From: Minisyncoccota bacterium
Lineage (GTDB): Bacteria; Patescibacteriota; Minisyncoccia; Moranbacterales; UBA1568
Length of the DNA: 64,000 nucleotides
Reading direction: 5' to 3'
Assembly (NCBI GenBank): GCA_051306005.1
Contig: JBPPMJ010000003.1
Coordinates: forward strand, 161,764 to 225,763
Below are positions 4,526 to 55,120 of the stretch, one piece after another. The notes under the pieces are model-generated. The model was not told where the DNA came from. It saw only the letters and a list, made by a program, of their open reading frames with translations, and ran no database searches. Position numbers and translations under genes: made by a program. The number at the start of each line of letters is the position of its first letter. The stretch's first letter is position 1.

Positions 4526-4560
4526 GAAAAAGTATAAAAATACAAACATATATTTTGCTT

Positions 4561-5688
4561 ATGGTCTTCGGTTTTCGTAAAACACATTTCTTGGGTATTG
4601 ATTTCGGTACGGCGTCCATCAAGGCGGTAGAGCTTTCTTTGCAAGGTGATCGTCCTGTTTTGGTAAACTATGGTCAGATTGGTTTGGCAGATTTGGAAAA
4701 AAAAGGTGCGTTACCGGGAACATCTTATGATGATGAGGTGAAACGTCATCTCAAAGCGTTGATGAAGGAAATGCATCCTAAAAGCCATACAGCTCATGTG
4801 GCAATGCCTGCTTTTACCGGATTGATTTCTTCGATTGAGTTCCCGGTAATGGGGGCTTCTGAATTACAAGAAGCGGTGCGTTTTGAAGCACACAAATACA
4901 TCCCCTCAGCATTGGATGAAGTGGCATTGAGTTGGGAAGTGATGGATACGCAAGAGGCGCCAGACGGAACAAAAAAAATGGATGTGTTGTTGGTAGCAGC
5001 TTTGAACAAAGAAGTAGTACGATATGAAGAATATATAGCGAGCGTCGGCTTGTCTGTAGAGTTTCTGGAGCTTGAAACATTTTCTATCGCTCGTTCTGTC
5101 ATTGGATCCGAGCAAAATTTATTTTTAGTGATTGATATTGGATCACGAGCGACCAATTTAATTCTGATTCAACATGGCACCGTGCGTATGAGTCGCAATG
5201 TAGATGTAGGCGGGAGAGATATTACGCGTGTTTTGGCAGAAAGTCTCAATATTACTCAAGATAGAGCTAAGATTATTAAAAAGAGTGGCAAAGATTTTCT
5301 ACTTGCCCCCGAATCAGTTTTAATATTTCCTGGTTTGCAAACCATCGCCAGTGAAGCAGGGAGAATGCTCAGTGCGTATCAAGCAAAATATCCTGATATT
5401 CGTTGTCAAGAGGTCATTTTGTCAGGTGGATCAGCACAATTTTATGGTTTGACACAGTATTATGCCAATCTTTTGAATCTACCTGTTACTTTGAGTGACA
5501 CCTGGAAAAATATTGATCACGATCCTCGTTTGACGCCAGTATTAGCTCAAAAAAGCACTTCTTTTTCTGTGGCTCTGGGAGCAGCTTTGCGAGGTATTGA
5601 TATAATGCGACAAAAAAAGACCACTTCTCAGCAGAACAAATCTACAAGAAGTTTTTCATTCAAGGAATTGATGACAAAAAAATTATAA
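4561..5688 (+). CDS. pilM: type IV pilus assembly protein PilM (actin-like ATPase fold)
   Basis: N-terminal 'LGIDFGTASIKAVEL' is PilM/FtsA-like. About 375 aa. It is followed by pilN/pilO-like genes. Start is placed at the ATG 2 codons inside the TTG-initiated ORF. Confidence 0.85.
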   Translation: MVFGFRKTHFLGIDFGTASIKAVELSLQGDRPVLVNYGQIGLADLEKKGALPGTSYDDEVKRHLKALMKEMHPKSHTAHVAMPAFTGLISSIEFPVMGASELQEAVRFEAHKYIPSALDEVALSWEVMDTQEAPDGTKKMDVLLVAALNKEVVRYEEYIASVGLSVEFLELETFSIARSVIGSEQNLFLVIDIGSRATNLILIQHGTVRMSRNVDVGGRDITRVLAESLNITQDRAKIIKKSGKDFLLAPESVLIFPGLQTIASEAGRMLSAYQAKYPDIRCQEVILSGGSAQFYGLTQYYANLLNLPVTLSDTWKNIDHDPRLTPVLAQKSTSFSVALGAALRGIDIMRQKKTTSQQNKSTRSFSFKELMTKKL

Positions 5689-5691
5689 ATG

Positions 5692-5700
5692 TGGTATACT
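5692..5700 (+). promoter_or_regulatory. extended -10 element TGgTATACT upstream of pilN
   Basis: The same TGnTATACT motif recurs upstream of several pilus genes. Confidence 0.35.
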
Positions 5701-5746
5701 AAAAAAAATAATAAAAAGTTAAAATATAAATTTTCTAATACATACG

Positions 5747-6271
5747 GTGATGGCTGGGATTAATCTTTCTTCGGTACCAAAAAATCAAAATCAATCACGC
5801 CGAGTATCTGATACAACTCTCGTGGTCATAGGTGCTATTTTTTTGGTGACTGTTATCGGGTTTGGTGGATTGCGTTGGTACCTCAAAACGCTTGATGACA
5901 AAATCGCTTTAATGGAAGTATCAGTGGGGGAAAATGCTGATATGCTTCAGGGACCGGCTGTTGATCGTGTGGCTCAATTTCAAGATCGTTTGACGCTTTT
6001 GTCAGCGCAACAAGCTAGTGACAACCTGAATGCCGAGATACAATTGCGACAGCTGGAAACTTTGATCCTTCCACAGGTAAAGCTAACGAAGTATCGATAT
6101 GATAAAACGGAAAAGTTTATCACGATGACCGGTGAAACTGACACTTTGAAATCTGTGGCTCAGCAAATTATAAGTTTGAAATCGGATGCTCTGTTTTCGG
6201 GAGTCGTAGTGGAAACATTGGGCAATGCTGAGGGAGGACGAACCGTGTTTTCATTACGTGCTGATTTTTAA
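5747..6271 (+). CDS. pilN: PilN-like pilus assembly protein (single N-terminal TM)
   Basis: Basic N-terminus then one TM helix (LVVIGAIFLVTVIGFGG). Size and position directly after pilM. Confidence 0.7.
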   Translation: MMAGINLSSVPKNQNQSRRVSDTTLVVIGAIFLVTVIGFGGLRWYLKTLDDKIALMEVSVGENADMLQGPAVDRVAQFQDRLTLLSAQQASDNLNAEIQLRQLETLILPQVKLTKYRYDKTEKFITMTGETDTLKSVAQQIISLKSDALFSGVVVETLGNAEGGRTVFSLRADF

Positions 6272-6304
6272 AGAGTTTATAATTTCTTTAGACAATATAT
6301 TTGT

Positions 6305-7084
6305 ATGAGGTTGAAAATACTCATCGCTCCGTTCTGCATTATCATGATTGCTATTTTGGCATTCGGTTATATCAAGCCAGATATAGAATCACTAGCCGTG
6401 AAAAAAGAAACACTGGCTATAAAGACCGCTCAATCTATGAATGTTTCCAATGTCGTTGAACATATCAATACCTTGAATCGTGAACTTGAGACTGCCTCTG
6501 ACGCCGAGTCCTTCATGTATCGCTATTTACCAAAATCAGCGACTCAAGAACAGATGATTGACACATTTAATTTTTTGGCGACACAATCAGGTGTTGCTAT
6601 CGTTGAAATAGCCTTACACCAGCCGATCAAAAATGATGTATCACCCAAGCCACTGCCGGATGCGTCTCCTGATGCCCTTTCAACACATTCGACAAATGTT
6701 ATGCTTACGCCCTCTGTTCAACCTGTTTCGGTGGAAAATGTCGTTTTGACAGGCACTATTGCTGGCTCGTACGACAATATAAAAATATTCCTGGATCGTT
6801 TGACACATATTGAACGTTTCCAGAAAATGAGATTTTTTACTTTAGAATCTCTTTCTGCGAAATCAACTGAGACGCAACAGCCTCTTTCTCAGAGTCTGCG
6901 TACAACGATAGAAGTAGAGTATGGTTATTTGCCATCTGCATCGGTTGCATCTGCGCTTATGCTCCCTGTGTTTGCGCAATCTTCTTTTGATATGTCTCCA
7001 GTACAGACGTTCCGTTCACAAATAACCAATCCTATACCAGTGTTGGAAAAAGGAATAGCAGGAAAACCCAATCCATTTGAATGA
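6305..7084 (+). CDS. pilO: PilO-like pilus assembly protein (single N-terminal TM plus coiled-coil)
   Basis: N-terminal TM helix (ILIAPFCIIMIAILAFGY), coiled-coil-like segment and position in the pilMNO order. Confidence 0.6.
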   Translation: MRLKILIAPFCIIMIAILAFGYIKPDIESLAVKKETLAIKTAQSMNVSNVVEHINTLNRELETASDAESFMYRYLPKSATQEQMIDTFNFLATQSGVAIVEIALHQPIKNDVSPKPLPDASPDALSTHSTNVMLTPSVQPVSVENVVLTGTIAGSYDNIKIFLDRLTHIERFQKMRFFTLESLSAKSTETQQPLSQSLRTTIEVEYGYLPSASVASALMLPVFAQSSFDMSPVQTFRSQITNPIPVLEKGIAGKPNPFE

Positions 7085-7103
7085 AGGTGACAAGCATTTT
7101 TCT

Positions 7104-8777
7104 ATGGAAGAAGCATTGACACAAACAAAGGATACTCAAGGAGCTGATGAATTGTCAGCTCTTTCCGCCCATGCCCAATCGATAGGGGTTTCTTTTTTGG
7201 CAGAACCACCGATAAAAATTGATAAAGAAATATTTTCGATTATATCGGAAGATACAGCGAAACGGTATAAGATGATTCCGTTTGCCAAAGAAAAAGATAC
7301 GCTGTCCGTGGCTATGATTGATCCGCAGGATTTTGACGCCCTCAATATTTTGCGTTTTTTATCTGAAAAAGAGCACATTACTATTGATATTTATCTGACT
7401 TCGCAGAGTGTGTTTGATACGCTTGCCAAACATTACACCGGAACCGATATAGCTCTCAAAGAGGCTATTTATTCTCTCAAAAAAGATGCGGATGAAATCA
7501 TGGAGACAACTGTGGAAAAAAAGAAGGATAAAGATGCGGAAGTGTTTCAGGACGCTCCTATTACCAAATTGGTAGAAGTTATTGTCAATCATGCATTGGA
7601 TGGTCGAGCCAGTGATATCCACATAGAACCCGTTGATGGAAGTTTTCGAGTTCGTTTTCGTATTGATGGTATTTTGCGTTCTCAGCTCGTTTTCCCCTTG
7701 GAAGTGGGACGCGCGGTGATGGCGCGTATCAAAATTCTTGCCAATCTCAAAATTGATGAGAAACGTAAACCACAGGATGGGCGTTTCCGTTTTGAAGGAG
7801 AAAATGGTCACACGGTAGATTTACGTGTTTCCAGTTTGCCGGTGATTGATGGTGAAAAGGTGGTAATGCGTGTTTTGGATAAAAGTTCTAATCTTTCAGA
7901 TTTGGACAAATTGGGTTTATGGGGACACAATCGTTCTGTGCTAGAGAGTCGGATTCGACAACCGTTTGGCATTATTTTGATTACCGGTCCGACGGGTTCA
8001 GGAAAATCAACCACGCTATATGCTTTTTTACAAATTCTCAATCAAGAGGAGAGAAATATCATTACTCTGGAAGATCCGGTAGAATATTATCTCGAAGGGA
8101 TCAATCAAAGTCAGATTATGCCAGAAATTGGCTATACCTTCGCTAGTGGTTTGCGATCTATCTTGCGACAAGATCCAAATGTGATTATGGTTGGAGAGAT
8201 TCGTGATGGTGAAACAGCTGAACTTACCATTCACGCAGCACTGACTGGTCACCTTGTTTTTTCTACCCTCCATACCAACGATGCTATCGGTTCGGTACCA
8301 CGTTTGGTAGATATGGGGGTGGAGTCATTCTTACTCTCCTCATCATTGCAGGCAGTGGCTGCTCAACGATTAGTACGTCGGATTTGTGATAATTGTCGTG
8401 ATGAGATTGTTTTGACTGACACGCAAAAACAAAATATCCGTACACTGTTTGACGCCTTGCCGGAAAAAGAGATTATGGATTATGGTCTTGATGCTAAACA
8501 ACCGTTAATTTTTTTTCATGGTAAGGGTTGCGATCAATGCGGGCAGTCCGGCTATAAGGGACGTATCGCTATTTATGAAGTGATAGCAATTGATGATATG
8601 ATGAGATCTGTTATTGCTGATATGAAAGGAAATGAAGCAGAGGTGCGGAAGGCGGCTTTTCATCAAGGTATGATTACCATGAAACAAGACGGGATTTTGA
8701 AGGCACTCAAGGGGATGACAACCTTGACGGAAGTGGAACGCGTGACAGAGGGAAAGCTCTTGGTGGACGCTGAATGA
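7104..8777 (+). CDS. pilB: type IV pilus assembly / type II secretion ATPase PilB (GspE family)
   Basis: Walker A 'GPTGSGKSTT', Asp box, His box, and the tetracysteine motif CDNC...CDQC of GspE/PilB. The start codon is uncertain (TTG at 7077 or ATG at 7104). Confidence 0.9.
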   Translation: MEEALTQTKDTQGADELSALSAHAQSIGVSFLAEPPIKIDKEIFSIISEDTAKRYKMIPFAKEKDTLSVAMIDPQDFDALNILRFLSEKEHITIDIYLTSQSVFDTLAKHYTGTDIALKEAIYSLKKDADEIMETTVEKKKDKDAEVFQDAPITKLVEVIVNHALDGRASDIHIEPVDGSFRVRFRIDGILRSQLVFPLEVGRAVMARIKILANLKIDEKRKPQDGRFRFEGENGHTVDLRVSSLPVIDGEKVVMRVLDKSSNLSDLDKLGLWGHNRSVLESRIRQPFGIILITGPTGSGKSTTLYAFLQILNQEERNIITLEDPVEYYLEGINQSQIMPEIGYTFASGLRSILRQDPNVIMVGEIRDGETAELTIHAALTGHLVFSTLHTNDAIGSVPRLVDMGVESFLLSSSLQAVAAQRLVRRICDNCRDEIVLTDTQKQNIRTLFDALPEKEIMDYGLDAKQPLIFFHGKGCDQCGQSGYKGRIAIYEVIAIDDMMRSVIADMKGNEAEVRKAAFHQGMITMKQDGILKALKGMTTLTEVERVTEGKLLVDAE

Positions 8778-8826
8778 GAATGAACAGAGATACTGAGAGA
8801 TTGTCATGAGTAGTGCGTAAAAAGTA

Positions 8827-8835
8827 TGGTATACT
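8827..8835 (+). promoter_or_regulatory. extended -10 element TGgTATACT upstream of pilT
   Basis: Read from the sequence, 45 nt upstream of the pilT ATG. Confidence 0.4.
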
Positions 8836-8879
8836 GTGTTTGACAGAACAATTTATTTTTTGATGTTTGGTACTATTCT

Positions 8880-9962
8880 ATGGAAGATGTCTTGCACGCC
8901 GAACAGCGTTTGAAAAATCTCTTACTGCTTGTCGGGCAACAAGGAGCATCAGATTTGCATTTGGTAGTTGGTCGCTATCCGACACTGCGGATTGACGGCA
9001 AATTGCGTCCTGTGACACAGGAAAAAGTGCTCACGCCTGCCGATACGAAAACCCTTTCGGATATCTTGTTAAGCGAAGACAAAAAACAGGAGTTGATTGC
9101 GGTCGGACAGACAGATTTTTCGTATAACTTTGAGGATCGTGTTCGATTTCGTACCAATATTTTTTTTCAGAAAGGATACGTCAGTGTCACGATGCGGTTC
9201 ATTATGGATCGTTTGCGGAATTTGGAAGAATTAAATGTTCCGACTTCACTCTATGGTTTTGCACAATATTCGCAGGGATTGGTACTGATCACTGGACCTG
9301 TGGGGCATGGCAAATCCACTACGTTGGCGGCGATTATCGATTATATCAATCACAATTTGGAAAAACACATCATTACCATTGAAGATCCGATTGAATTCGT
9401 CTACAATCAGGATCGCTGTATCGTCAATCAGCGTGAAATCGGACGTGATGCCAAGAATTTTCCTGACGCCTTGCGAGGCGTATTCCGTGAAGATGCGAAC
9501 GTGGTATTGTTGGGAGAATTGCGTGATTTGGAAACGATCAGTACTGCCATGACAGCTGCAGAGACAGGACACTTGATTTTTGCTACACTCCATACCAATG
9601 ATAGCGTACAGACGATTGATCGTATTATTGACGTATTCCCTGCTCATCAACAAAATCAGATTCGTTCTCAGTTGGCAAGTGTTTTGTTGGGTGTGGTATC
9701 ACAACGTTTGCTTCCCCGGTCGGGAGGTGGACGTATACCTGCCATCGAGATCATGCTCAAAAATCAGGCAGTAGAAAATCTGATTCGTGAAAATAAGATT
9801 CATCAATTAGATGCTGTGATTGAAACAGGCTTGAAAGAGGGAATGATGTCTCTGGATAGGTCGCTCGTAGATTTGGTGCGTCGAGGACTGGTATCTATCA
9901 ATGATGCCTTTGTTTATGCCAAGAACCGGGATTATTTGCAAATGTTAATGAGTAAGGAATGA
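8880..9962 (+). CDS. pilT: twitching motility / pilus retraction ATPase PilT
   Basis: Walker A 'GPVGHGKSTTLAA', 360 aa, and the PilT-specific 'AIRNLIRE'-like motif (AVENLIRENKIHQ). Confidence 0.9.
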   Translation: MEDVLHAEQRLKNLLLLVGQQGASDLHLVVGRYPTLRIDGKLRPVTQEKVLTPADTKTLSDILLSEDKKQELIAVGQTDFSYNFEDRVRFRTNIFFQKGYVSVTMRFIMDRLRNLEELNVPTSLYGFAQYSQGLVLITGPVGHGKSTTLAAIIDYINHNLEKHIITIEDPIEFVYNQDRCIVNQREIGRDAKNFPDALRGVFREDANVVLLGELRDLETISTAMTAAETGHLIFATLHTNDSVQTIDRIIDVFPAHQQNQIRSQLASVLLGVVSQRLLPRSGGGRIPAIEIMLKNQAVENLIRENKIHQLDAVIETGLKEGMMSLDRSLVDLVRRGLVSINDAFVYAKNRDYLQMLMSKE

Positions 9963-10012
9963 TGTTTTTTGTATAAAAAATAAATAATGATTGATGTTAA
10001 ATAAAGAAGAGT

Positions 10013-11221
10013 ATGAAGTTTCTTTTCAAAGCAAAAGATAATGCGGGAAAAATTCGTGAAGGCACCGTAGAAGCGATTAGTTGGGAAGCAGCTGGACAGA
10101 CGTTGCAAAAAAATTTACTGACCCCCCTGACTATTACCGAACAAAAAGAAACAAATGTTTGGATACGAAGTTTTCAAAAAATATTTGAAGGAGCGAGCCA
10201 GAAAGAGTTAATGATATTTTTCCGTCAGCTTTCAACTTTGGTGGAGGCTCGCGTCCCTATTGTTTCCGCATTACGTACTATTGGAGACCAATCTGAAAAT
10301 CGTTTTTTGCAGATCGTTATCAAAGAAATGAGTGATGACATTGAAGACGGCATGCCTTTTTCCGAGGCATTGGAGAAACAATCGGAAGTTTTTTCCACTC
10401 TGACTATCAATATGATTCGTGCGGGCGAGGTGTCAGGTAATCTCCAGACATCCATTGAATTTGTAACGTTGAGTATTGAGAAAAATTACGCTTTGACTTC
10501 TCGGATCAAAGGAGCGCTGTATTATCCAGCTTTTGTTTTGAGTGTGGCATTTATCGTCGGTTTTGTCGTGGTTACTTTTATTTTGCCTCGCATCACCGTA
10601 TTGATCAAAGATATGCACGTACCTGTACCATGGTACACGGCGATGTTGATTTGGATTGGAGACTTTATGAGTGCTTATTGGTGGGGGGTGGCGGGCGTCA
10701 TTATTGCTGCTGTCAGTGCGAGCGTGTATTACCTTCGAACTGAATCAGGGAAACTTGAATGGGAAATTGTGTTGTTGAAAATCCCAATCGTTGGCAAATT
10801 GATGCGTAATATTTATATCACGCGTTTTGCCGACAATCTTGGGGCGCTTCTTGAGAGCGGGATACCAGTTGTGCATTCCTTGAATATCGTGAGTGATGTC
10901 GTCGGTAATTCTGTTTTTCGAGAAATTATTTTGAAAGCCGCCGGAGAGGTGAAGGCTGGAGGCACTATGAGTGTATCTTTTTTGCGTACTACGGAAATGC
11001 CAGCCATCGTGGCGCAGATGATTCGTATCGGTGAAGAAACAGGCACATTATCCAAAGTCTTGAAAAGTGTTGGGCAATTTTATAATCAGGAAGTGGAGAT
11101 GATGACCAAGAACATGACGAGCTTGATTGAACCAATCTTGATCGTGGCGCTCGGTATTGGTGTGGGAATTTTGGTGGTGGGAGTTTTGATGCCTATTTAC
11201 AATATTGCTGGACAGTTGTAA
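10013..11221 (+). CDS. pilC: type IV pilus platform protein PilC (GspF family)
   Basis: Two GspF repeats, 402 aa, three TM segments, and conserved 'PIVA/PAIVAQMIRIGEETG'-type motifs. Confidence 0.9.
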   Translation: MKFLFKAKDNAGKIREGTVEAISWEAAGQTLQKNLLTPLTITEQKETNVWIRSFQKIFEGASQKELMIFFRQLSTLVEARVPIVSALRTIGDQSENRFLQIVIKEMSDDIEDGMPFSEALEKQSEVFSTLTINMIRAGEVSGNLQTSIEFVTLSIEKNYALTSRIKGALYYPAFVLSVAFIVGFVVVTFILPRITVLIKDMHVPVPWYTAMLIWIGDFMSAYWWGVAGVIIAAVSASVYYLRTESGKLEWEIVLLKIPIVGKLMRNIYITRFADNLGALLESGIPVVHSLNIVSDVVGNSVFREIILKAAGEVKAGGTMSVSFLRTTEMPAIVAQMIRIGEETGTLSKVLKSVGQFYNQEVEMMTKNMTSLIEPILIVALGIGVGILVVGVLMPIYNIAGQL

Positions 11222-11434: not shown

Positions 11435-11794
11435 ATGAAGCAAGTACTCAAGGGATTTACCCTTATTGAACTTTTGATCGTTATCGCGATCATCGGTATT
11501 CTCTCTTCTGTCGTGTTAGTCAGTTTGAGTAGTGCCCGTTCCAAGGCACAGGTGGCATCATTCAAAGCTGAAACAGCGGGTGCAGTTGCTGGTATGTTGC
11601 TCATGTGTGATGCCGGCAACATTACCTTGCCAGCAGACACCAACACGACTAACTGGCCGGCAGCGATTACTCAGTCTTGCGGTATGAGTGGCAGTGGTAC
11701 TTTCAATTTAACGGCTGTGCCGACGAATGCTGGTATTACTTGCAGTGCCAATGTAACGAACACTGGTGTTACGTTCACTGGTGCAGGTTGTTAG
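11435..11794 (+). CDS. major type IV pilin (prepilin with class III signal peptide)
   Basis: Leader MKQVLKG followed by FTLIELLIVIAIIGIL, which is the prepilin cleavage/methylation motif with Glu at +5. The mature part is Ser/Thr/Gly/Ala-rich with four Cys, including a C-terminal pair. Start is placed at the ATG that gives a 7-aa leader rather than the upstream GTG. Confidence 0.85.
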   Translation: MKQVLKGFTLIELLIVIAIIGILSSVVLVSLSSARSKAQVASFKAETAGAVAGMLLMCDAGNITLPADTNTTNWPAAITQSCGMSGSGTFNLTAVPTNAGITCSANVTNTGVTFTGAGC

Positions 11795-11829
11795 CACCTG
11801 ATTTTGTTTTTGGTGCGGACTATATTGGC

Positions 11830-11861
11830 AAAAAATCCCTTTTTGGGATTTTTTGCTTTTT
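11830..11861 (+). terminator. intrinsic terminator after the pilin gene
   Basis: Hairpin AAAAAATCCC-TTTTT-GGGATTTTTT followed by a T-rich tract, 36 nt after the pilin stop codon. Confidence 0.55.
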
Positions 11862-11984
11862 ATGATCAATGACTCTGATGTATTAGGATCAGTGGGGTGT
11901 GATGGAGAGCATTGTTTTCAGCAGTATGTTGATTTGAAACAATGTTGATTTCAAGGTAGACTGGATAAAAGAGTGAGAAACTAG

Positions 11985-13730
11985 TTGAATATGCATAATA
12001 AAAAGAGTGTTTTACCTCATAGACTCGGTAAGTCCATGCATGGTATGCGCAGTATTGTGGTTCTGCATGCTTGGTTGTGGAAGACGGCATCTTGTGTACG
12101 TGACTTTGTAGCGCGACATCTCTGGTGCAGACTTTTGTTGGTGTATCTTTTTTTCGTATTGATGTTTTCTTTTTATTTTTTTATTCCAAAATTTACTTCT
12201 CTTGATGATCAGTTTTTCAATATTCGTTTGGCACAACAGGTATCACAACGGGGGATAACGGCACTGTCTGCATTTGATGATCTCGCCTTTTCTGATACTG
12301 GCGCCTTTTTTTACAGCGTTTTGTTTTATTATCTGCTTATTCCTTTTACGTGGTTTCATCCATTAGAGCTTGGTATCAAGGTATTCGCTGTCATGGGTTT
12401 TTCTTTTACCATATCCACGCTCTATCTCTTTTTATCAAAAAATGGTTTTCGCTTGGCTTTTCTCTGGTTATTAACATTACTGAGTCTCAGTTTTTCAGTC
12501 GGCGATTATCACCATTTTCTTATGGCCCGTGCTTTTATCCTGGCACCAGGCGTGTTGGTGTTACTTCTTTTCTCTTTATCACGTCGTCGGTTCTTTTGGG
12601 TTGGTCTTTTATCATTTCTGTATTTTTTTCTCCATACGGCAACGGCTTTTTTACCGCTTATTTTGAGTATTGTGTATTCTGCTTTGAGCGCTCGTCATGA
12701 TACACGTTCGGCTCGTAAAATCATGATGGCGAGTATTCTTGGATTGGGAAGCGCTGGCATTTTTGGATTTATCTTTTTGCCGGGATTTTTGCCTATGCTA
12801 GTCAATCTTTTTACGACACTTTTCGGCCTTATCATATCTTTTCAGTCAGGGCTAGATGTAGTAAAAATTGATGAAGGAATGGAAACATATCCCACTACGC
12901 TTTTTGATATTTTTTTGGCGAGACCATTTTTTACCAGTATGACCGTTATTTTTCTGACAGTTGAGTGTGCTCGATTGGTGCGCGCGCTGAAACGCACTAT
13001 CGATTTTGAGGATACGCTGAAATTGACGTTATTCACCATGACCGCCTTGCTTCTTTTAGCTTCCTTTTTTACCAAGCGCGCCGTTGATTTTTTTCTGATA
13101 TTCGGGCTTTTGTTTATCGCCTTTTCTCTCAAAGAAGTTTTTACGGTATACACGTTGAGAGACGCAAAAATGTATCTCTCTGGTCTTATCATAGCTCTGG
13201 TGGTTGCACTAAGCGCGCAGATATTGTTTTTGGCGGATACCATCGCTTCTGCTTCTCCTTATGCTGAGATACAGGGTGCTACCCGATGGATTCGTGATAA
13301 TACGAAAGAAAATAGTATTGTGTTTAATCCGACCATCAATTTCTTTCCAACATTTTATTTTTATAACGCGGGATATAATCGCGTGATTATCGGATTAGAA
13401 CCAAGAAATATGTATAAAGCAGATGCGCGTAAGTACTGGCTGTGGTATAATCTGTCAAATTATGGCATCGTGTGCGCAGAACAGGTGTGCGGTAAGCAAC
13501 GGGCCTTACAAGATGCGATGCTTAAAGACCATTTTGCTGACTGGTATCAGGAAACAGGCGATGGGGTAGCTGACATCATTATTCATGAGTTTGGCACGGA
13601 TATCATAATAACAAGCACCGCCTTCCCCGCTTTTACTGAGCTTTTGAAAAACAATCATCGGTTTGAAAAGGTCTATGAAACTCCAGTGACCAGCAGATAT
13701 AGTGTTTATCGAATCATGGAAACAAAGTGA
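11985..13730 (+). CDS. polytopic membrane protein with GT-C glycosyltransferase-like architecture (about 11 TM segments plus a C-terminal soluble domain)
   Basis: Many hydrophobic helices across the first ~430 aa. Acidic 'LDDQFF' sits in the first extracytoplasmic loop. The C-terminal ~150-aa soluble domain contains 'YWLWYNLSNYG'. The gene lies immediately downstream of the pilin gene on the same strand. The function is inferred. Confidence 0.6.
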   Translation: MNMHNKKSVLPHRLGKSMHGMRSIVVLHAWLWKTASCVRDFVARHLWCRLLLVYLFFVLMFSFYFFIPKFTSLDDQFFNIRLAQQVSQRGITALSAFDDLAFSDTGAFFYSVLFYYLLIPFTWFHPLELGIKVFAVMGFSFTISTLYLFLSKNGFRLAFLWLLTLLSLSFSVGDYHHFLMARAFILAPGVLVLLLFSLSRRRFFWVGLLSFLYFFLHTATAFLPLILSIVYSALSARHDTRSARKIMMASILGLGSAGIFGFIFLPGFLPMLVNLFTTLFGLIISFQSGLDVVKIDEGMETYPTTLFDIFLARPFFTSMTVIFLTVECARLVRALKRTIDFEDTLKLTLFTMTALLLLASFFTKRAVDFFLIFGLLFIAFSLKEVFTVYTLRDAKMYLSGLIIALVVALSAQILFLADTIASASPYAEIQGATRWIRDNTKENSIVFNPTINFFPTFYFYNAGYNRVIIGLEPRNMYKADARKYWLWYNLSNYGIVCAEQVCGKQRALQDAMLKDHFADWYQETGDGVADIIIHEFGTDIIITSTAFPAFTELLKNNHRFEKVYETPVTSRYSVYRIMETK

Positions 13731-13757
13731 TGTCTCTGTGAGGATTACTTGATAATT

Positions 13758-14135
13758 TCATATCTTGGTCACAAAGAATATCCCAATAAAAATCAGTAAA
13801 GATCCGAAAAGTTGTGTACTGCTTAATTGTTCTTTGAAGAAATAATGATTGGCAATAACGACCAAGATGATGGCGCTAGAATTGATAAATGTCGTGATGG
13901 TAGTGGAGCTGGAAGCAAGCTCTGGGATTTTGTAAAGAGCATTGTTGGTCATGATAAAAAGAAGTCTTGATCCAAAAGCGAGAATGGCGCCGAGGATGAA
14001 ACGCCAATCAAAAATAATGTGTATAAGACGATAAAAACTGATGTCACCGGCAACGAAATCCCGATGACCGAGCAGTAAAATTGACGTGGTTGTGGTGAGG
14101 GAAAAAAGTATGGCCCAGAATATGACAATATGCAT
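13758..14135 (-). CDS. small 4-TM membrane protein (EamA/GtrA/ArnE-like), candidate lipid-linked sugar flippase
   Basis: 125 aa with four predicted TM helices. It is the last gene of the glycosyltransferase operon. Confidence 0.55.
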   Translation of the reverse strand: MHIVIFWAILFSLTTTTSILLLGHRDFVAGDISFYRLIHIIFDWRFILGAILAFGSRLLFIMTNNALYKIPELASSSTTITTFINSSAIILVVIANHYFFKEQLSSTQLFGSLLIFIGIFFVTKI

Positions 14136-14143
14136 AAGAGTAT

Positions 14144-15187
14144 TTAAAGAAATTTTTTGATGCAGGTATAATAGAATGTAAAGAAGCGGTTGGCGTATTT
14201 TAGGATGGGAGAACGTACTTCTGCGAAATCAATGGTTGGACTGAGAAATAAGAATAGTTCTTTGTCAGAAAGAATACGGCTTTTTTGTATACCCTTTCTT
14301 TGTTTGAGCAAACGAGGTAATGCTAGTATGTAGTCCATATCCGCCTTAAGTTTTTTGAAGAAATAGCCTTTGGATATCGCCTCACACAAGACACCGCACT
14401 CCATAATCAGAAAAGCGGGAAGAACAAGGCATTGAAGTCTGAATGAATAAAATTTCGTGAGAAAAAAAAGGCGATTGCGTTCCAAAAGATAAAATTTGGC
14501 GTTGTGCAATGATTTTTTTTGAAAATCATATTTGTGCCAAACTTTGGATTTTGCTGATACGATAATTTTGTATCCGAGCATTCGTGCGTGCCATCCGATA
14601 TCTTGATCTTCAAGGTAGGCAAAATACGTAGTATCAAGCCTGATGACATCGGGATAATATTCTCTCTTGATAAAGAGACTTGACCCACTCGCGTAGGTTA
14701 TTTCAACGTCTTCCGTAAACACATCTTTTTCCTGATAATGTCCGCAATAGCCAAAACCGAGAAAATGGATCTGATTGCCAAAAGAATTAATATAATTTGT
14801 TGGTCCATCGCTCCAGAGCAAGACTTTGGATTGAGCGAGCGCAATATCAGGAGAAGCATAAGCGGAACGGACAAGTTCCGTGAGCCAGTCTGGATCTGTT
14901 ACGGTATCCGGATTCAAGAGTACTACCGCCTCAAAATCTTGGGAAAAAGCGTTGTTGATGGCAATATCGTATGCGCCAGCATAGCCGAGATTTTCTGGAT
15001 TCCGTATGACTTCTATGGTCGGATAATTTTTTTGAATAAAATCAGCGGAGGTGTCTGTAGAAGCGTTATCAATGTAGGTTACTGTATAGTGAGGGTATGT
15101 CTGGAGACATACCGTATTGAGAGTATCACGCAATGTATCCTTGTGGTTGTAGCCCAATATGAGTACGGCAATACGTGGTTGATTCAT
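14144..15187 (-). CDS. family 2 glycosyltransferase (GT-A fold)
   Basis: N-terminal 'RIAVLILGYNHKDTL...DNASTD' and an ED(Q)D motif 'YLEDQDIGWHARM'. Confidence 0.8.
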   Translation of the reverse strand: MNQPRIAVLILGYNHKDTLRDTLNTVCLQTYPHYTVTYIDNASTDTSADFIQKNYPTIEVIRNPENLGYAGAYDIAINNAFSQDFEAVVLLNPDTVTDPDWLTELVRSAYASPDIALAQSKVLLWSDGPTNYINSFGNQIHFLGFGYCGHYQEKDVFTEDVEITYASGSSLFIKREYYPDVIRLDTTYFAYLEDQDIGWHARMLGYKIIVSAKSKVWHKYDFQKKSLHNAKFYLLERNRLFFLTKFYSFRLQCLVLPAFLIMECGVLCEAISKGYFFKKLKADMDYILALPRLLKQRKGIQKSRILSDKELFLFLSPTIDFAEVRSPILKYANRFFTFYYTCIKKFL

Positions 15188-15891
15188 AGTTTGGTTCCAA
15201 TAAACAATAGATCGGGTTTGAGTATTTTTGTCAGAATATGGTTCATTGGATAATAATTAAACATACTGCTACTTTTTTCTATCAGTATTGTTTGAAAGTA
15301 TGGTTGCATCATACTGGTGAATTGACGCAACGTCCATTCGTGGACATGTGTTTTGTCATAGAAGTATCTGTGTAGTATAAAATCAAGATTCGCTGTGGTG
15401 AGAGCAATGCGCCCACCTTTTTTGAGTAGACGTATACATTCATTGAGAAACTTTTGTTCATCACGCAGATGCTCAATGAGATTGATGGAAATCAAAATGT
15501 CAAATGATGCATCTTTGAAAGGGAGTGGTGTATTGAGATCATGTGCATGAAACGTACTTTCTGGATATTTCTGCTGTGCTGAAACGACCGACAAATCCAA
15601 TCCGATGACATTTTTTGTGTTATTACTCAATGCATACGTATAATCACCGACACCGCAACCAAGATCAAGTATCGCATCGTCCGCTTGAGGAGCGATGATA
15701 CGCATAATCTTTTTCATTTGCGGGTCAGTCAATGGATTGCGTCTATAAGGTTTGGCATAGAGCCTTTTGTGGTAAGTGTCGTAACTGGGTTGTGTGAATG
15801 GTTCGACATAGGAACAGGAAAGACACAAAGAATGATCTCGGCGTTCTGGGTTGATAAAGAAATATGGTTGATGACAGAGAGGGCAGAGCAT
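15184..15891 (-). CDS. class I SAM-dependent methyltransferase with N-terminal Cys4 zinc ribbon
   Basis: CPLCH...CLSC ribbon. Motif I 'ILDLGCGVGDYT' and motif II 'DILISINLIEHL'. Confidence 0.8.
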   Translation of the reverse strand: MLCPLCHQPYFFINPERRDHSLCLSCSYVEPFTQPSYDTYHKRLYAKPYRRNPLTDPQMKKIMRIIAPQADDAILDLGCGVGDYTYALSNNTKNVIGLDLSVVSAQQKYPESTFHAHDLNTPLPFKDASFDILISINLIEHLRDEQKFLNECIRLLKKGGRIALTTANLDFILHRYFYDKTHVHEWTLRQFTSMMQPYFQTILIEKSSSMFNYYPMNHILTKILKPDLLFIGTKL

Positions 15892-15894
15892 AGG

Positions 15895-16233
15895 TCATTT
15901 TTTTTTGATTTTTGTTAATGCCTCTTTGCGGATTATTTCAGAAATATCGTGTTCAAGTCGCTCAAGGATGCTTAAAAATTTGAAAAGAATGATAAATGTA
16001 ATCACGAAACCAATAAAAATCAGAGTATTGAGGTTTTCCCCGAGACCGAGGGCAAGAGATATTTCCCGAGCTGTTCCGGGGAAAACCGCAAAGAAAGCAA
16101 CGAATCCCCAGATAATGAGTGTCATGCAAAATTTGAAGAAAGTCTGACCTCTTTCTCGTTGGATAAATTTTAGGATGCCGTTGCCGAGAAAGATCAGGGC
16201 GATGCAAATAAGAATGAGTTGAGAGAAAGTCAT
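15895..16233 (-). CDS. small membrane protein (DUF2304/GacJ-like partner of polyprenyl-phosphate GT2 enzymes)
   Basis: 112 aa, three TM helices and a charged C-terminal tail. It sits directly downstream of the DPM1-like GT2. The family assignment is from memory of the architecture and is not a search result. Confidence 0.5.
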   Translation of the reverse strand: MTFSQLILICIALIFLGNGILKFIQRERGQTFFKFCMTLIIWGFVAFFAVFPGTAREISLALGLGENLNTLIFIGFVITFIILFKFLSILERLEHDISEIIRKEALTKIKKK

Positions 16234-16242
16234 AGTGAAGCG

Positions 16243-16905
16243 TTAACTTGAGAGTATCATTTTTATCAGTGTTTTGAAGCCGTTCCAGGAATTCATTTTT
16301 TGTTTTTTCCCCAATGAATAGGCCGTGTAGCGTACTTGGATAGGGACTTCCGCGAATGTGAGTTTGTGATAGCGTATCTCTCGAATAATTTCACTGTCAT
16401 ATTCGTAGCGATCTGTTTTTGTATCAATCATGCGGAGTGCTTTGGTCGAATAGGCACGGAAGCCTGACTGGCTATCGGTTACCCAAAGACCATAGAGCAT
16501 CCAGACAAAAATGTTACCGATATGATTATGGAGTATTTTATATCGAGGCATACCGTATGTATTTTTGAGACGGCTTCCCAAAACAACGTCATAGCCAGTG
16601 TGAATGAGTGTCAGCATGGCTGAAATATCGCTTGGGTCGTGTTGTCCATCACCATCCAACGTAATAACAGTACTAGCACCTAATTTCTTGGCAGCTTCGA
16701 TGCCAGTCTTGACTGCGGCACCTTTTCCTCGGTTGATAAGATGTTTCAACACAACAACACCGGAAATTTGTTTGGCGATTTCTTCCGTATCATCAGTGCT
16801 CCCGTCATCGACTACGATAATATTTTGATAACCAAACAAACGTATTTCATCAATCACCGTGCGGATAACGCGACCCTCATTGTAGGCGGGAATAATAATC
16901 CACAT
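16243..16905 (-). CDS. GT2 polyprenyl-phosphate sugar synthase (DPM1/GtrB/ArnC/GacI-like)
   Basis: 'IIIPAYNEGRVI...IIVVDDGSTDDT...LDGDGQHDP' is the characteristic dolichyl/undecaprenyl-phosphate glycosyltransferase signature. 220 aa. Confidence 0.85.
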   Translation of the reverse strand: MWIIIPAYNEGRVIRTVIDEIRLFGYQNIIVVDDGSTDDTEEIAKQISGVVVLKHLINRGKGAAVKTGIEAAKKLGASTVITLDGDGQHDPSDISAMLTLIHTGYDVVLGSRLKNTYGMPRYKILHNHIGNIFVWMLYGLWVTDSQSGFRAYSTKALRMIDTKTDRYEYDSEIIREIRYHKLTFAEVPIQVRYTAYSLGKKQKMNSWNGFKTLIKMILSS

Positions 16906-17157
16906 AAATAAGTTTTGTATTCAAGATGTTCATCAATACCCGTGTGATACGTTACCCAGGATATATTTTCTCGTTGCAAAAGTATTGATGAATGACGCAT
17001 CCTTACTCCTTTTAATATACTAGAAAAGGGGAAAAAGGTAAATTGATATGAGGTAAGGATTTATTGCTAAGAAAGTCAAACACACTTTTTCAGCCTTGAC
17101 GCATGTGTTGTCACCGTGTGTCTTGATACGTAAACGTCTTTACTCTGCTTGCCATTA

Positions 17158-17166
17158 TGTTACAAT
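17158..17166 (+). promoter_or_regulatory. extended -10 element TGtTACAAT in the divergent intergenic region upstream of pilD
   Basis: Read from the sequence. It lies in the 378-bp divergent region between the glycosyltransferase operon (minus strand) and the pilD operon (plus strand). Confidence 0.35.
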
Positions 17167-17283
17167 GTTTATGCGTAGTCATGGATACAAAAAACTGGTT
17201 AGTAAAGGTCTCTGGATATATTTTTTGTATAAACCTGTTTGATATTAATCACATGACGTTGTTTTAGAATTTAAAAAAAATAT

Positions 17284-18090
17284 ATGCCGTTTACACTTCT
17301 GTTGGCTTTTTTGGTGTTTGGTCTTATTATTGGAAGTTTTTTGAATGTCGTAGTGTGCCGTTTACACGATGCGGAGACACTCTTGGGGCGTTCATTGTGT
17401 AGGCACTGTCAGCATCAGATTCGTTGGTATGACAATATTCCGCTTATCAGTTTCATCTTATTGTGTGGAAAGTGTCGAGATTGTGCGAAACGGATTTCTT
17501 GGCAATATCCCGTCTTGGAATTATTAACTGGCATTTTGTTTGTTTTTTTTGGTTGGACATTTCTAGATAATGGTACTTTGATGGACTGGATACGGATAGG
17601 ATGGTTGTTTGCTCTTATCAGTTGCTTTATAGTGATCGCCACGTATGATTTTCAATATATGGAAGTACCTATTAATGGTATCTTTTTGAGCGCTTTGTTG
17701 ATTTATGGGTTTCTGGCATTTTCATTTTTGGTATATCAGCCTCTTTTTATTGCTTCTGACCTTTGGCTGGGTATTTTGGGAGGTATTGTTATAGGAAGTT
17801 TCTTTTTTCTTTTGGTATGGATGTCTCGTGAAACTTGGATGGGATGGGGAGATGTGTGGCTTGGTATAGTGGTTGGCTCTTTGGTCGGTTTACCTCTTAT
17901 TCTGCCAATGCTGACCATAGCCTGTGGATTGGGTGCGATGACTGGCATATTCTCTGTTTTCTTTTATTCCAAAAGTCTCAAAAGTCAAATCCCCTTTGCC
18001 CCTTTTTTAATCATTGGAGCATTGGTAGTGTTATTGTTGGCTGAATTATTTCCGGATTTTTTTACATTGTACAATGGAGGGTTTTTTTGA
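17284..18090 (+). CDS. pilD: prepilin peptidase PilD (A24 aspartic peptidase / N-methyltransferase)
   Basis: N-terminal 'GLIIGSFLNVVVCRL', the tetracysteine CRHC...CGKCRDC motif and a polytopic membrane C-terminus. 268 aa. Confidence 0.9.
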   Translation: MPFTLLLAFLVFGLIIGSFLNVVVCRLHDAETLLGRSLCRHCQHQIRWYDNIPLISFILLCGKCRDCAKRISWQYPVLELLTGILFVFFGWTFLDNGTLMDWIRIGWLFALISCFIVIATYDFQYMEVPINGIFLSALLIYGFLAFSFLVYQPLFIASDLWLGILGGIVIGSFFFLLVWMSRETWMGWGDVWLGIVVGSLVGLPLILPMLTIACGLGAMTGIFSVFFYSKSLKSQIPFAPFLIIGALVVLLLAELFPDFFTLYNGGFF

Positions 18091-18131
18091 TAGAATAGAA
18101 GTAAATAAAAAAGACACATTATATTTATCGT

Positions 18132-18677
18132 ATGTTCATGCTGACTCGATTTTTTATTTTTTTTAATAAACGAAAACAGCATTCTGGTTTTACATTGATA
18201 GAGCTTCTGATAGTGTTGGCTATCGTAAGTATTATGAGTGGAATTACTCTTGTGTTTTTGGGCAGTGGAAGACCAGAAAGAGCGGTGGAAACGAATGCTC
18301 AAGAAATAACGGCCGTCATCCATGAAGCACAAAACGCAGCACTGACTGGAAAAAAAATGACTGGTAACGGTATCCCACTTGATAATACCCCATGTTCTTT
18401 CGGAGTGGATTGGAACACCCCAAATACGTATCGGTTGCTCTATGCCTATAAGACGGGAGGAGGATCATGTGTCACCCCAATTGCTATCACTTCTTATGTG
18501 ATTAAAAACGGAGTGACATTGAGTGGTAATAATGTTGTCATATTTGCTCTGCCTCATGCCACGTCTTCATTGTCTGCACCGACAACCATAAAATTGACAA
18601 AAGACTCTGTTTCAGCGGTTGTTTGTTTGTATCCTGATGGGCGTATCATGCAACAAGCTGGTTCGACATGCCCATAA
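18132..18677 (+). CDS. minor pilin / pseudopilin with prepilin-type N-terminus
   Basis: '...KQHSG|FTLIELLIVLAIVSIM' class III signal motif. Confidence 0.8.
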   Translation: MFMLTRFFIFFNKRKQHSGFTLIELLIVLAIVSIMSGITLVFLGSGRPERAVETNAQEITAVIHEAQNAALTGKKMTGNGIPLDNTPCSFGVDWNTPNTYRLLYAYKTGGGSCVTPIAITSYVIKNGVTLSGNNVVIFALPHATSSLSAPTTIKLTKDSVSAVVCLYPDGRIMQQAGSTCP

Positions 18678-19282
18678 TTTTTAGCACAGATGAGTCTGAT
18701 ATGCTGTTTCAACAAGCGCGATATTTGAAAACAAGGGGATTACCTGGTTTTTCTATTGGTGAAGTTGTTTTATCGATGTTTATCCTGACAGCCGGATTAC
18801 TTTCCATTTCCGCTTTGATGGCGAGTAGCATTCGAAACACCTTTGATATCAATGATACGGTGATTGCAACTGGATTGGCACAGGAAGGAATTGAGCTCGT
18901 AAAAAATAATCGGGATAATGATTTCATCATGGGAAGCAATGGATTCGCACACTTCAGTGCTGGAAAAAAACACTGCCGTATTGATATTGACAATGTTGTG
19001 ACGGACGACCTTGATTGTACGGGAAACATATCTTCAGCTTCAAGCTATACTCTGACATACCAGAATGGTTTTTATAGGCATAATAATAGTGCATCCGAAC
19101 GTTTTTCCCGCTATGTATATATCGATTATGATGCCAGTTCTCAGGACACCATTGTTCGCAGTTTTGTTTACTGGGGTGGTGGTACGAATGATACTTTTAC
19201 GCCGTCGTCACCGATTGCGGATTGTGATGTTGTCAAAAAATGTGTCATGACAGAAACAACATTGACTGATTGGAAACAATAG
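18668..19282 (+). CDS. minor pilin / pseudopilin with prepilin-type N-terminus
   Basis: '...RGLPG|FSIGEVVLSMFILTAGLL' class III signal motif with Glu at +5. Confidence 0.75.
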   Translation: MPIIFSTDESDMLFQQARYLKTRGLPGFSIGEVVLSMFILTAGLLSISALMASSIRNTFDINDTVIATGLAQEGIELVKNNRDNDFIMGSNGFAHFSAGKKHCRIDIDNVVTDDLDCTGNISSASSYTLTYQNGFYRHNNSASERFSRYVYIDYDASSQDTIVRSFVYWGGGTNDTFTPSSPIADCDVVKKCVMTETTLTDWKQ

Positions 19283-19293
19283 AAAGTATTTTT

Positions 19294-19866
19294 ATGCATT
19301 ATATCAAAAGGAAACATCATTTTGGGTTCACGTTGATTGAAGTTGTTGTAGCGTTGTTTATTTTTTCTATTCTCATGATAGCGGTTTCCAGCATCTTTAC
19401 GCAGTTTTTTGGTTCTTACAAAGAGGTGCAGGCAATGGCGAAAAATGTGGAAAATTCCCAATTTGTTCTGAATCGTATCGCCAAAGAGTTGCGAACAAGC
19501 ACTGTGACTATTGCAGAGAGTTCACGGGTACGTTTTTATGACTATTCACAAGACATGTGTTTGGAATATCGCATCAATTCCGTTGCCAAAACTTTCACGG
19601 TAGCGCAGAAAGTTATTGCTCTTCCGGTTGATCCGTTCACGGATTGTGATAATTCCGGAGTGTGGGTTGGCCCGCAACCATTGATAAAAATTGACACACC
19701 ATCCGGCGTGTTGCAGGGTTCTTTTTTGACGACTCAGTCTAGTAAAACTCCTCAAAGAATTGGTAAAGTGACCGCTTCACTATCTGTTCAAGAGAACGCT
19801 CAACATGTTTCTAATTTTCAAGTAACGGTGTCTTTGCGGGATTATGTCTATGTCGGTTTGCAATAA
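19294..19866 (+). CDS. minor pilin / pseudopilin with prepilin-type N-terminus
   Basis: 'MHYIKRKHHFG|FTLIEVVVALFIFSIL' class III signal motif. Start is placed at the ATG inside the TTG-initiated ORF. Confidence 0.8.
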   Translation: MHYIKRKHHFGFTLIEVVVALFIFSILMIAVSSIFTQFFGSYKEVQAMAKNVENSQFVLNRIAKELRTSTVTIAESSRVRFYDYSQDMCLEYRINSVAKTFTVAQKVIALPVDPFTDCDNSGVWVGPQPLIKIDTPSGVLQGSFLTTQSSKTPQRIGKVTASLSVQENAQHVSNFQVTVSLRDYVYVGLQ

Positions 19867-50302: not shown

Positions 50303-50321
50303 CGTTGTTAAAGGTAGAATG

Positions 50322-50330
50322 TGGTATAAT
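50322..50330 (+). promoter_or_regulatory. extended -10 promoter TGgTATAAT upstream of the second pilC
   Basis: Read from the sequence, 46 nt upstream of the ATG. Confidence 0.45.
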
Positions 50331-50376
50331 ACAAAAAAAGATACAAAATATGGATGAAAAAATAAACATTTGAATT

Positions 50377-51597: not shown

Positions 51598-51604
51598 ACA
51601 TTTT

Positions 51605-52984: not shown

Positions 52985-52989
52985 AATCT

Positions 52990-53610: not shown

Positions 53611-53612
53611 TT

Positions 53613-55061: not shown

Positions 55062-55090
55062 ATATGCTGTTTTCAAAAAAGTATAAATTA

Positions 55091-55099
55091 TGGTACAAT
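55091..55099 (+). promoter_or_regulatory. extended -10 element TGgTACAAT upstream of the second pilM
   Basis: Read from the sequence, 22 nt upstream of the ATG. Confidence 0.35.
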
Positions 55100-55120
55100 T
55101 GAAAAAAGATAAAAAAAACA

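Follow-up and report, generated by a model that had tools for sequence, protein, structure and literature searches.

In Pseudomonas aeruginosa, the gene for TfpW, the O-arabinofuranosyltransferase of group IV pilins, lies directly downstream of pilA. TfpW is a glycosyltransferase of fold class C (GT-C) with an essential DDX motif in periplasmic loop 1; its sugar is O-linked chiefly to Thr64 and Thr66, and a GtrA-like or ArnE/F flippase is required. The pilin-glycosylating gene tfpO likewise directly follows pilA. TfpO/PilO and PglL are Wzy_C/O-antigen-ligase-type enzymes using glycans linked to undecaprenyl pyrophosphate (Und-PP), and the type IV pilins and archaellins of archaea are substrates of AglB. 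GacI/GacJ and PpgS/Rv3632 are characterised pairs that make N-acetylhexosamine-phosphate-polyprenol (HexNAc-P-polyprenol) for a GT-C enzyme: in Streptococcus pyogenes the DUF2304 member GacJ complexes with and stimulates the GlcNAc-P-Und synthase GacI, the streptococcal GT-C GacL transfers the sugar made by GacI/GacJ outside the membrane, and Rv3632 does for PpgS in Mycobacterium tuberculosis what GacJ does for GacI. Here we analyse a locus that combines elements of these systems in a 64,000-nt stretch of DNA (the window; assembly GCA_051306005.1, JBPPMJ010000003.1:161,764-225,763, forward strand) from a Minisyncoccota bacterium of the candidate phyla radiation (CPR)/Patescibacteria. In window coordinates, the major type IV pilin gene (11435-11794, plus strand) is followed by a gene for a 561-aa membrane protein (12045-13730, plus strand), toward which a five-gene sugar operon runs on the minus strand.

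We conclude that the locus is probably a dedicated three-component module for glycosylation of the pilin. It would comprise a polyprenyl-phosphate sugar synthase of glycosyltransferase family 2 (GT2a) with its DUF2304 partner and a second such glycosyltransferase (GT2b) with a methyltransferase, then a small flippase, and finally the GT-C protein acting on the pilin. An earlier note on this DNA, made from the letters alone, had described the pilin gene, its terminator, the membrane protein gene, the convergent five-gene operon and a 378-bp divergent intergenic region; our open reading frame (ORF) map recovered all ORFs of 11435-16905 as first described, and a hairpin search confirmed the terminator.

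A predicted GT-C enzyme beside the pilin gene

The membrane protein ORF opens at a TTG codon at 11985 and ends at 13730; the ATG at 12045, which gives the 561-aa product, agrees better with public gene calls and with how homologues begin. No Pfam or NCBIfam family matched this protein. Searches of the PDB by phmmer and with the family profile found nothing significant (the top entry was AftA, E 1.3), and the only PDB matches of a broader family profile (A2), a sodium-channel subunit and a designed repeat protein, were spurious. Profiles for YfhO, PMT, PMT_2, ArnT and other named GT-C families matched neither the query nor 70 relatives, and the family profile showed no similarity to Escherichia coli ArnT (hhalign probability 1.1%). 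A word-indexed search brought up only 21 relatives. Among 1.84 billion cluster representatives, a profile search retrieved 1,751 at E <= 1e-3, of which 180 reach E <= 1e-30, and none of the 1,751 has a curated profile. As judged by these searches, the protein is an orphan, yet a member of a large family that lacks a curated profile.

Its fold is more telling. An AlphaFold2 (AF2) model built from 19 sequences is confident (pLDDT 85.6, pTM 0.84) and has 13 membrane helices, where about 11 had been counted from the letters. Foldseek against the PDB ranked STT3A/B, yeast Stt3, AglB, DPY19 and PglB at the top (E 9e-9 to 1e-5, TMq 0.5-0.6), followed by AftA, ArnT, AftD and ALG9, so that only GT-C enzymes stand at the top; the mixed alpha/beta C-terminal domain of the model resembles that of AglB. 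Among the matches listed there was no O-antigen ligase, Wzy or transporter fold, and on this ground we reject the reading of the protein as a Wzy polymerase or transporter, the outcome that, according to the earlier note, would have refuted its idea. The Wzy_C profile likewise matched neither the query nor any of the 70 relatives, 13 of which gave weak matches to EpsG, a family placed by Pfam in the GT-C clan. On the model, then, the 561-aa protein has a GT-C fold, not a Wzy/WaaL or transporter one.

The conserved residues are D54, D55, R162, H197, E280, R345, W465, W467, C477 and C482. In the close family F-T-S-x-D-D-Q-F-F-x-I and Y-W-x-W are invariant (LDDQFF and YWLWYNLSNYG in the window); the first of these motifs lies 7 residues past transmembrane helix 1 (TM1), and D54-D55 is invariant in 19 close members. 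Further motifs are M-A-R-A-F (R162), H-T-x-T (H197), T-K-R (R345) and G-x-E-x-Y-P (E280), the last in the sole low-confidence loop of the model, between helices 9 and 10, while two invariant Cys and the motifs F-N-P-T, E-P-R and Y-W-x-W lie in the C-terminal domain. Across 70 members at ~20% identity R162 is invariant, and D55, E280, R345, W465, C477 and C482 are kept in at least 90%. Such a pattern is that of an active GT-C, and activity is predicted on this basis; fold homology would place the acidic pair on the outer side of the membrane.

The resemblance to STT3 and AglB raises the question of whether the protein might be an N-oligosaccharyltransferase, which would move a lipid-linked methylated oligosaccharide onto Asn of N-x-S/T sequons in the pilin, with the donor on polyprenyl monophosphate as in the AglJ/AglG/AglP/AglB pathway of Haloferax. 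The leading Foldseek ranks of STT3, AglB and PglB speak for this, as do the 13 helices, the flexible loop 9-10 with its invariant Glu and the AglB-like C-terminal domain. Two distant fusion proteins of the family (below) also have matches to TIGR04154 (archaeo_STT3), at 7e-7 and 5e-6, both weak and below the cutoff. The hallmarks of STT3 are missing, nevertheless. No STT3 profile matched the query (Pfam, NCBIfam) or the 70 relatives (Pfam), and the query has no match to the regular expressions WWD[YWF]G and W[WYF]D. Its sole Trp-rich motif is YWLWY, which holds no Asp, so a correspondence of YWLWYNLSNYG to the WWDYG motif of STT3 is not supported. A phmmer search of two distant fusion proteins against the PDB, made to obtain an alignment over WWDYG, matched only their family 2 glycosyltransferase (GT2) domains. 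Because these hallmarks are missing, we file the protein as a GT-C of an unnamed family, structurally nearest to STT3/AglB.

Linkage to pilin genes in relatives

We examined loci encoding homologues at 24-100% identity; a search with a narrower alignment (A1) gave 7 loci. In 14 distinct loci, which span this whole range (the window, L001/L012, L004, L005/6, L007/8, L009, L010/11, L013, L014, L015, the P0005 contig, L016/17, L022 and L023), the GT-C gene directly adjoins a pilin gene within the pilus locus, and the adjacency that the earlier note had seen once is thus conserved down to 24% identity. Recurring in 14 distinct loci, it is not a matter of chance; the loci share ancestry and do not amount to 14 independent events. 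The placement beside the pilin gene varies: the GT-C gene may lie on the same strand, be convergent, lie between pilin paralogues, or be part of a fusion with a GT2 gene. In L001 and L016 it sits between pilin genes.

The sugar genes are far less constant. The convergent cassette of the window (GT2a, DUF2304, GT2b, methyltransferase) also occurs in L011. A same-strand cassette with a MocA-type oxidoreductase, a GT4 glycosyltransferase, GtrA, a methyltransferase and a GtrB-like GT2 is found in L004-L009, L013, L015 and the P0005 contig; L022 has GtrA and an FAD oxidase beside the GT-C gene; and L001, L014 and L023 have no sugar genes, the GT-C gene lying there between pilin genes or between the pilin gene and that for PilD. 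Were the pilin the substrate and its glycan diversifying, one would expect just this, a constant pilin partner and an exchangeable sugar partner.

GT2::GT-C fusions occur in 5 of 70 distant members (P0040, at L016 8001-10433, P0082, P0097, P0116 and P0137; 729-827 aa), with an N-terminal GT2 of the AglJ, dolichol-phosphate mannose synthase (DPMS) or ArnC type; the fusion P0040 sits between two pairs of pilin genes. Another distant member, P0161, lies in an operon of methyltransferase, GT2 and GT-C genes away from pilus genes. Taken with the GT2 and DUF2304 genes adjacent in the window, the fusions point indirectly to a polyprenyl-phosphate-linked sugar as the predicted donor. They also bear on the idea that the protein is a non-catalytic accessory or assembly factor of the pilus that has merely retained a GT-C-like fold. 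There is precedent in other bacteria for non-enzymatic accessory genes downstream of pilA, of the TfpY/TfpZ type. We consider this explanation very improbable, given that the acidic pair, R162, E280 and R345 are at least 90% conserved in relatives at ~20% identity and that some members are fused to, or in an operon with, polyprenyl-phosphate sugar synthases.

Some family members keep other company. The fusion P0082 is on a short contig beside a TrbC-type pilin: the TrbC/T4SS_pilin gene (L018 2915-3256, minus strand) is convergent to the fusion gene, which hints that family members also associate with conjugative-type pilins.

The convergent sugar operon

The operon's five minus-strand genes extend from 16905 down to 13758 and are spaced 9, 3, -4 and 8 nt apart. 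The first encodes GT2a (16243-16905, 220 aa), which the earlier note had called DPM1/GtrB/ArnC-like. This assignment held: GT2a matches the NCBIfam profiles PpgS (2.8e-40) and AglJ (1e-34) and also that for dolichyl-phosphate hexose transferase, and its sequence matches in the PDB are Pyrococcus dolichol-phosphate mannose synthase (1e-9) and ArnC. Its score against PpgS (NF058614) is 138.1 bits with a cutoff of 370, so that GT2a is of the same type as PpgS and not its orthologue. Going by these profile and PDB matches, GT2a is a polyprenyl-monophosphate sugar synthase of the DPMS/ArnC/PpgS/AglJ type.

Nine nt downstream of GT2a lies the gene (15895-16233) for a 112-aa protein with three transmembrane (TM) helices. 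Noticed before as a small membrane protein, it proves to be a DUF2304 member (PF10066, 5.6e-15; 55.9 bits, cutoff 25.5) and is predicted to be a GT2 activator of the GacJ/Rv3632 type rather than a flippase. The third gene (15184-15891) encodes a 235-aa S-adenosylmethionine (SAM)-dependent methyltransferase (Methyltransf_11, 1.6e-19) with four Cys in an N-terminal CxxC...CxxC element; a methyltransferase is present in the sugar-gene cassette of every relative that has an adjacent cassette. GT2b (14144-15187, 347 aa; Glycos_transf_2, 4.5e-21) is soluble and has only weak NCBIfam matches, to rhamnosyltransferase, GlfT1 and AglG, and no sequence match in the PDB; an orthologue, 47% identical, is in the same cassette of L011. 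GT2b probably extends the glycan or makes a second residue. The last gene (13758-14135) encodes a 125-aa protein with four TM helices that may be a small EamA/drug-metabolite transporter-like half transporter, its EamA match being below the cutoff. It does not match GtrA; the cassettes of relatives hold a GtrA-family protein at that position, and a role in flipping the lipid-linked sugar is plausible.

For the N-glycosylation alternative, the similarity of GT2a to AglJ, the weak similarity of GT2b to AglG and the presence of a methyltransferase are favourable; against it, profile scans found neither an initiating phosphoglycosyltransferase nor a Wzx/PglK-type flippase in the locus.

The pilin and its candidate acceptor sites

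The pilin gene encodes a 119-aa major type IV prepilin with the leader MKQVLKG|FTLIELL, which matches the profiles N_methyl and TIGR02532; its mature form has 112 aa, one fewer than first counted. It holds four Cys. An identical pilin in the protein collection carries the label Minisyncoccota, the phylum name that takes in Patescibacteriia, and close homologues are labelled Candidatus Moranbacteria, in keeping with a CPR host. In an AF2 model (pLDDT 86.6) a helix at 10-60 is followed by a loop at 61-78 and then four strands; Foldseek with this model against the PDB was uninformative (top pilin match E 6.9). The four N-x-S/T sequons listed in the earlier note are indeed present (NIT, NTT with Asp at -2, NLT and NVT), and this number is barely above that expected from composition (4 vs a shuffle mean of 1.5, P = 0.04). 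They are not conserved in position: no sequon column exceeds 17% of 63 homologous pilins, and sequons are missing altogether from several pilins of these loci (the first copy where two stand in tandem). Sequon enrichment, being weak in the window and not conserved, was rejected as evidence for N-glycosylation. The four sequons and the Asp at -2 of one of them are thus the pilin's part of the case for an STT3/AglB-like N-oligosaccharyltransferase; set against their lack of conservation, the sequon-free pilins, the absence of WWDYG and of STT3 profile matches, and the missing initiating enzyme and flippase, they leave that explanation quite unlikely.

What is conserved is the motif P-x-D-T-x-x-T-N-W, which the model places in the alpha-beta loop that connects the long N-terminal helix to the first strand; the loop reads P-A-D-T-N-T-T-N-W in the window pilin. 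P66, T72 and W74 (prepilin numbering) are kept in at least 90% of the 63 homologues; in mature numbering, P59 is found in 98%, Ser/Thr at position 62 in 95%, Thr at T65 in 90% and W67 in 94%. An O-linkage in this loop is the reading that we prefer, partly by analogy with Thr64 and Thr66 of the TfpW substrate. That the acceptor itself lies in the Thr-rich loop (mature T62, T64 or T65) is possible, though we would give it less than an even chance.

Proposed mechanism

In the pathway that we propose, GT2a, stimulated by its DUF2304 partner, would charge polyprenyl monophosphate with a sugar, probably HexNAc or a hexose, at the cytoplasmic face of the membrane. GT2b and the SAM-dependent methyltransferase would probably elaborate this sugar or a second residue. 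A small membrane protein (the 125-aa 4-TM protein here, a GtrA-family protein in relatives) would translocate the lipid-linked glycan. At the outer face the 561-aa GT-C, with the invariant Asp pair after TM1 as its predicted catalytic centre, would move the glycan onto the pilin before or during pilus assembly, most likely onto a Thr of the exposed alpha-beta loop.

The proposal of the earlier note, a lipid-carrier-dependent glycosylation module tied to the pilin, is supported in this form by the fold, by the GT2a matches and by the conserved adjacency; the pilin's place as acceptor comes from gene context.

Several observations weigh against this proposal. (i) Only gene order points to the pilin as acceptor, and the wider superfamily includes members away from pilin genes; P0060, for instance, lies 3.6 kb from the pilus operon, beyond ClpB. 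(ii) A strong terminator-like hairpin follows the pilin gene (11827-11857, plus strand; 13-bp stem, 5-nt loop and T-run), and the sugar operon reads from the other strand; this layout gives no evidence of co-expression. (iii) GT2a falls below the equivalog cutoffs of PpgS, AglJ and dolichyl-phosphate hexose transferase, well below in the case of PpgS and AglJ, so these matches do not name its sugar. (iv) The EamA match of the 4-TM protein is sub-threshold (E 9e-5, 23.2 bits, cutoff 28.2), and BLAST found no similarity to E. coli ArnE or ArnF. (v) One-dimensional positive-inside charge counts on the model helices gave no consistent topology mid-protein and were discarded. (vi) The Moranbacteria-like relatives L024/L025, whose pilin is 72% identical, have the same pilus locus (in L024, 1-18360: PilMNO, PilB, PilT, PilC, two pilins, PilD, minor pilins, LigA) with neither GT-C nor sugar genes in 18 kb. 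The GT-C gene is therefore dispensable for the pilus and counts as an inserted accessory, comparable to the pilin accessory genes of Pseudomonas. L024/L025 still has the loop motif, as PADTTTTNY; this motif is thus not tied to presence of the enzyme and may be structural.

Some of these points would fit an enzyme that modifies the cell envelope, of the GacL, Rv3779 or YfhO type, whose sugar would go onto a lipid, a wall polysaccharide or a polymer like teichoic acid; in that case its gene would owe its position among the pilus genes only to shared surface biology or inherited synteny. The combination of GT2, DUF2304 and GT-C is experimentally known only for polysaccharides (the group A carbohydrate and arabinogalactan), some distant members lie away from pilin genes, a close relative does without the GT-C gene in its pilus locus, and the similar backbone of all 14 loci means that their adjacencies are not independent. 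We still hold this explanation to be unlikely: the gene has stayed beside a pilin gene through rearrangements, at identities as low as 24%, with its sugar cassette exchanged or lost, wall-polymer synthesis genes are absent nearby, and no YfhO, PMT_2 or other named GT-C profile was matched. Glycosylation of the pilin remains the reading that we favour.

Other features of the window

The genes for the type IV pilus machinery (PilM, PilN, PilO, PilB, PilT and PilC; 4555-11221, plus strand, from the ORF map) precede the pilin gene, and relatives keep the same gene order at 27-86% identity; ClpB is encoded upstream of them on the minus strand. In more distant loci a response-regulator receiver gene, absent from the window, lies between those for PilB and PilT (L016 4032-4421, L022 10542-10946 and L023 2281-2667). 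L011 encodes, near its pilin/GT-C pair, a 1007-aa protein with two tandem PilB-like secretion ATPase units (8048-11071, minus strand).

On the far side of the sugar operon, a divergent intergenic region of 378 bp (16906-17283) separates it from the pilD operon; promoter-like matches in this region are at consensus level only and no commoner than in shuffled sequence. Prepilin peptidase PilD and three minor pilins are encoded at 17284-19866 on the plus strand (A24_N_bact, Peptidase_A24, N_methyl and PilV matches), followed by LigA, and the PilD/minor-pilin segment is syntenic in relatives.

GC skew is positive throughout the window (1-64000) and nearly all genes are on the plus strand, the sugar operon and the ClpB block being among the few minus-strand units. 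Recent horizontal insertion of the cassette was considered on grounds of composition and rejected, since its GC content (0.39-0.40) is not distinctive against ~0.41 for the window. A second pilin-like cluster lies at 49376-57547, especially 51605-52984 and 53613-55061 (both plus strand). One of its products has 459 aa, the prepilin motif QGFTLIES and a CarboxypepD_reg domain; another has 482 aa and a PilX_N domain. These two may be large minor pilins or adhesins.

Significance

A GT-C gene after pilA and three-component lipid-sugar systems were already known. New here are the enzyme family, its STT3-like architecture, a donor module of the GacI/GacJ type at a pilin system, and the lineage: the literature that we searched gave no description of a pilin-linked GT-C enzyme in CPR bacteria. 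Type IV pili are thought to mediate host attachment in CPR/Patescibacteria, and a recent study of Saccharibacteria, in which pilin O-glycosylation sites were predicted only, called for exploration of the process. As the present locus names an enzyme family and a donor pathway, the question of pilin glycosylation becomes testable. If the assignment is right, it adds a third structural solution for pilA-adjacent pilin glycosylation, after those of the Wzy_C-type TfpO/PglL and the Emb-like TfpW, and a large orphan family of membrane proteins gains a fold and a probable role. With its swappable cassettes, and with the GT-C gene present in some close relatives and absent in others, the system suggests that the pilus surface is under diversifying selection; in Pseudomonas, the same pattern is tied to phage evasion.

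A bolder idea, to which we give only a small chance, is that the family is a largely CPR-borne bacterial sister branch of STT3/AglB that has lost WWDYG and uses methylated mono- or disaccharides on polyprenyl monophosphate, made by AglJ-like enzymes. It would then be a bacterial counterpart of the archaeal AglB pathway for type IV pilins and archaellins, and would imply that the link of type IV filament subunits with STT3-like enzymes is either old and shared or the product of inter-domain transfer. In that case the glycan on the pilin, with its swappable cassettes and presence/absence polymorphism, would serve as a variable coat of the cell surface that matters for phage evasion or host attachment in episymbiotic CPR bacteria.

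Comparison with known systems

STT3, AglB and PglB (family GT66) come nearest in structure to the 561-aa protein. They share with it a membrane domain of 13 TM helices in which an acidic residue follows TM1, an invariant Glu in the flexible loop that joins helices 9 and 10, and in the case of AglB a similar C-terminal globular domain. Unlike them, our protein has no STT3 profile match, no WWDYG and no conserved acceptor sequons, and the donor genes here point to monophosphate-linked sugars, not to a pyrophosphate-linked oligosaccharide. It differs also from TfpO/PglL, in having no Wzy_C profile match and no WaaL/Wzy-type structure among the matches listed.

The logic of synthase, small flippase and GT-C is that of GtrA/GtrB/Gtr* and ArnC/ArnEF/ArnT, and GT2a matches, by sequence, structures of ArnC; their acceptors are O-antigen or lipid A, and there is no similarity here to ArnT, ArnE or ArnF of E. 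coli. Closer in gene content are GacI/GacJ/GacL and PpgS/Rv3632/Rv3779, in which a GT2 synthase is likewise joined by an adjacent DUF2304 protein and a GT-C transferase. Those systems decorate polysaccharides (the GlcNAc side chain of the group A carbohydrate, GalN of arabinogalactan), whereas here the GT-C gene stands among pilin genes and the donor genes include, in addition, a methyltransferase and a second GT2.

TfpW is set apart from the present enzyme, by its description, by a C-terminal tetratricopeptide repeat (TPR) region, a proline-rich Emb-like motif YX6PFX7P and 11 predicted TM helices; our protein has 13 helices and an alpha/beta AglB-like C-terminal domain, with no TPR profile match and no hit to a YX6PFX7P regular expression. 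In place of the DPPR synthase/DprE1/DprE2 route to D-Araf there are a GT2, a DUF2304 protein, a methyltransferase, a second GT2 and a 4-TM protein, and the host is a CPR bacterium with a pilus locus that lacks a secretin gene. In its setting TfpW is a close parallel. In both cases a GT-C gene adjoins the major pilin gene (in the window and 13 further loci), an acidic DD motif stands in the first external loop (placed there by fold homology in our protein), and a polyprenyl-monophosphate donor (predicted here) and a small flippase (a candidate here) are employed; some species cluster sugar-pathway genes with pilA-tfpW, as in our locus, and the candidate Thr sites of the pilin fall in the same region of the mature protein as Thr64 and Thr66 of the TfpW substrate.

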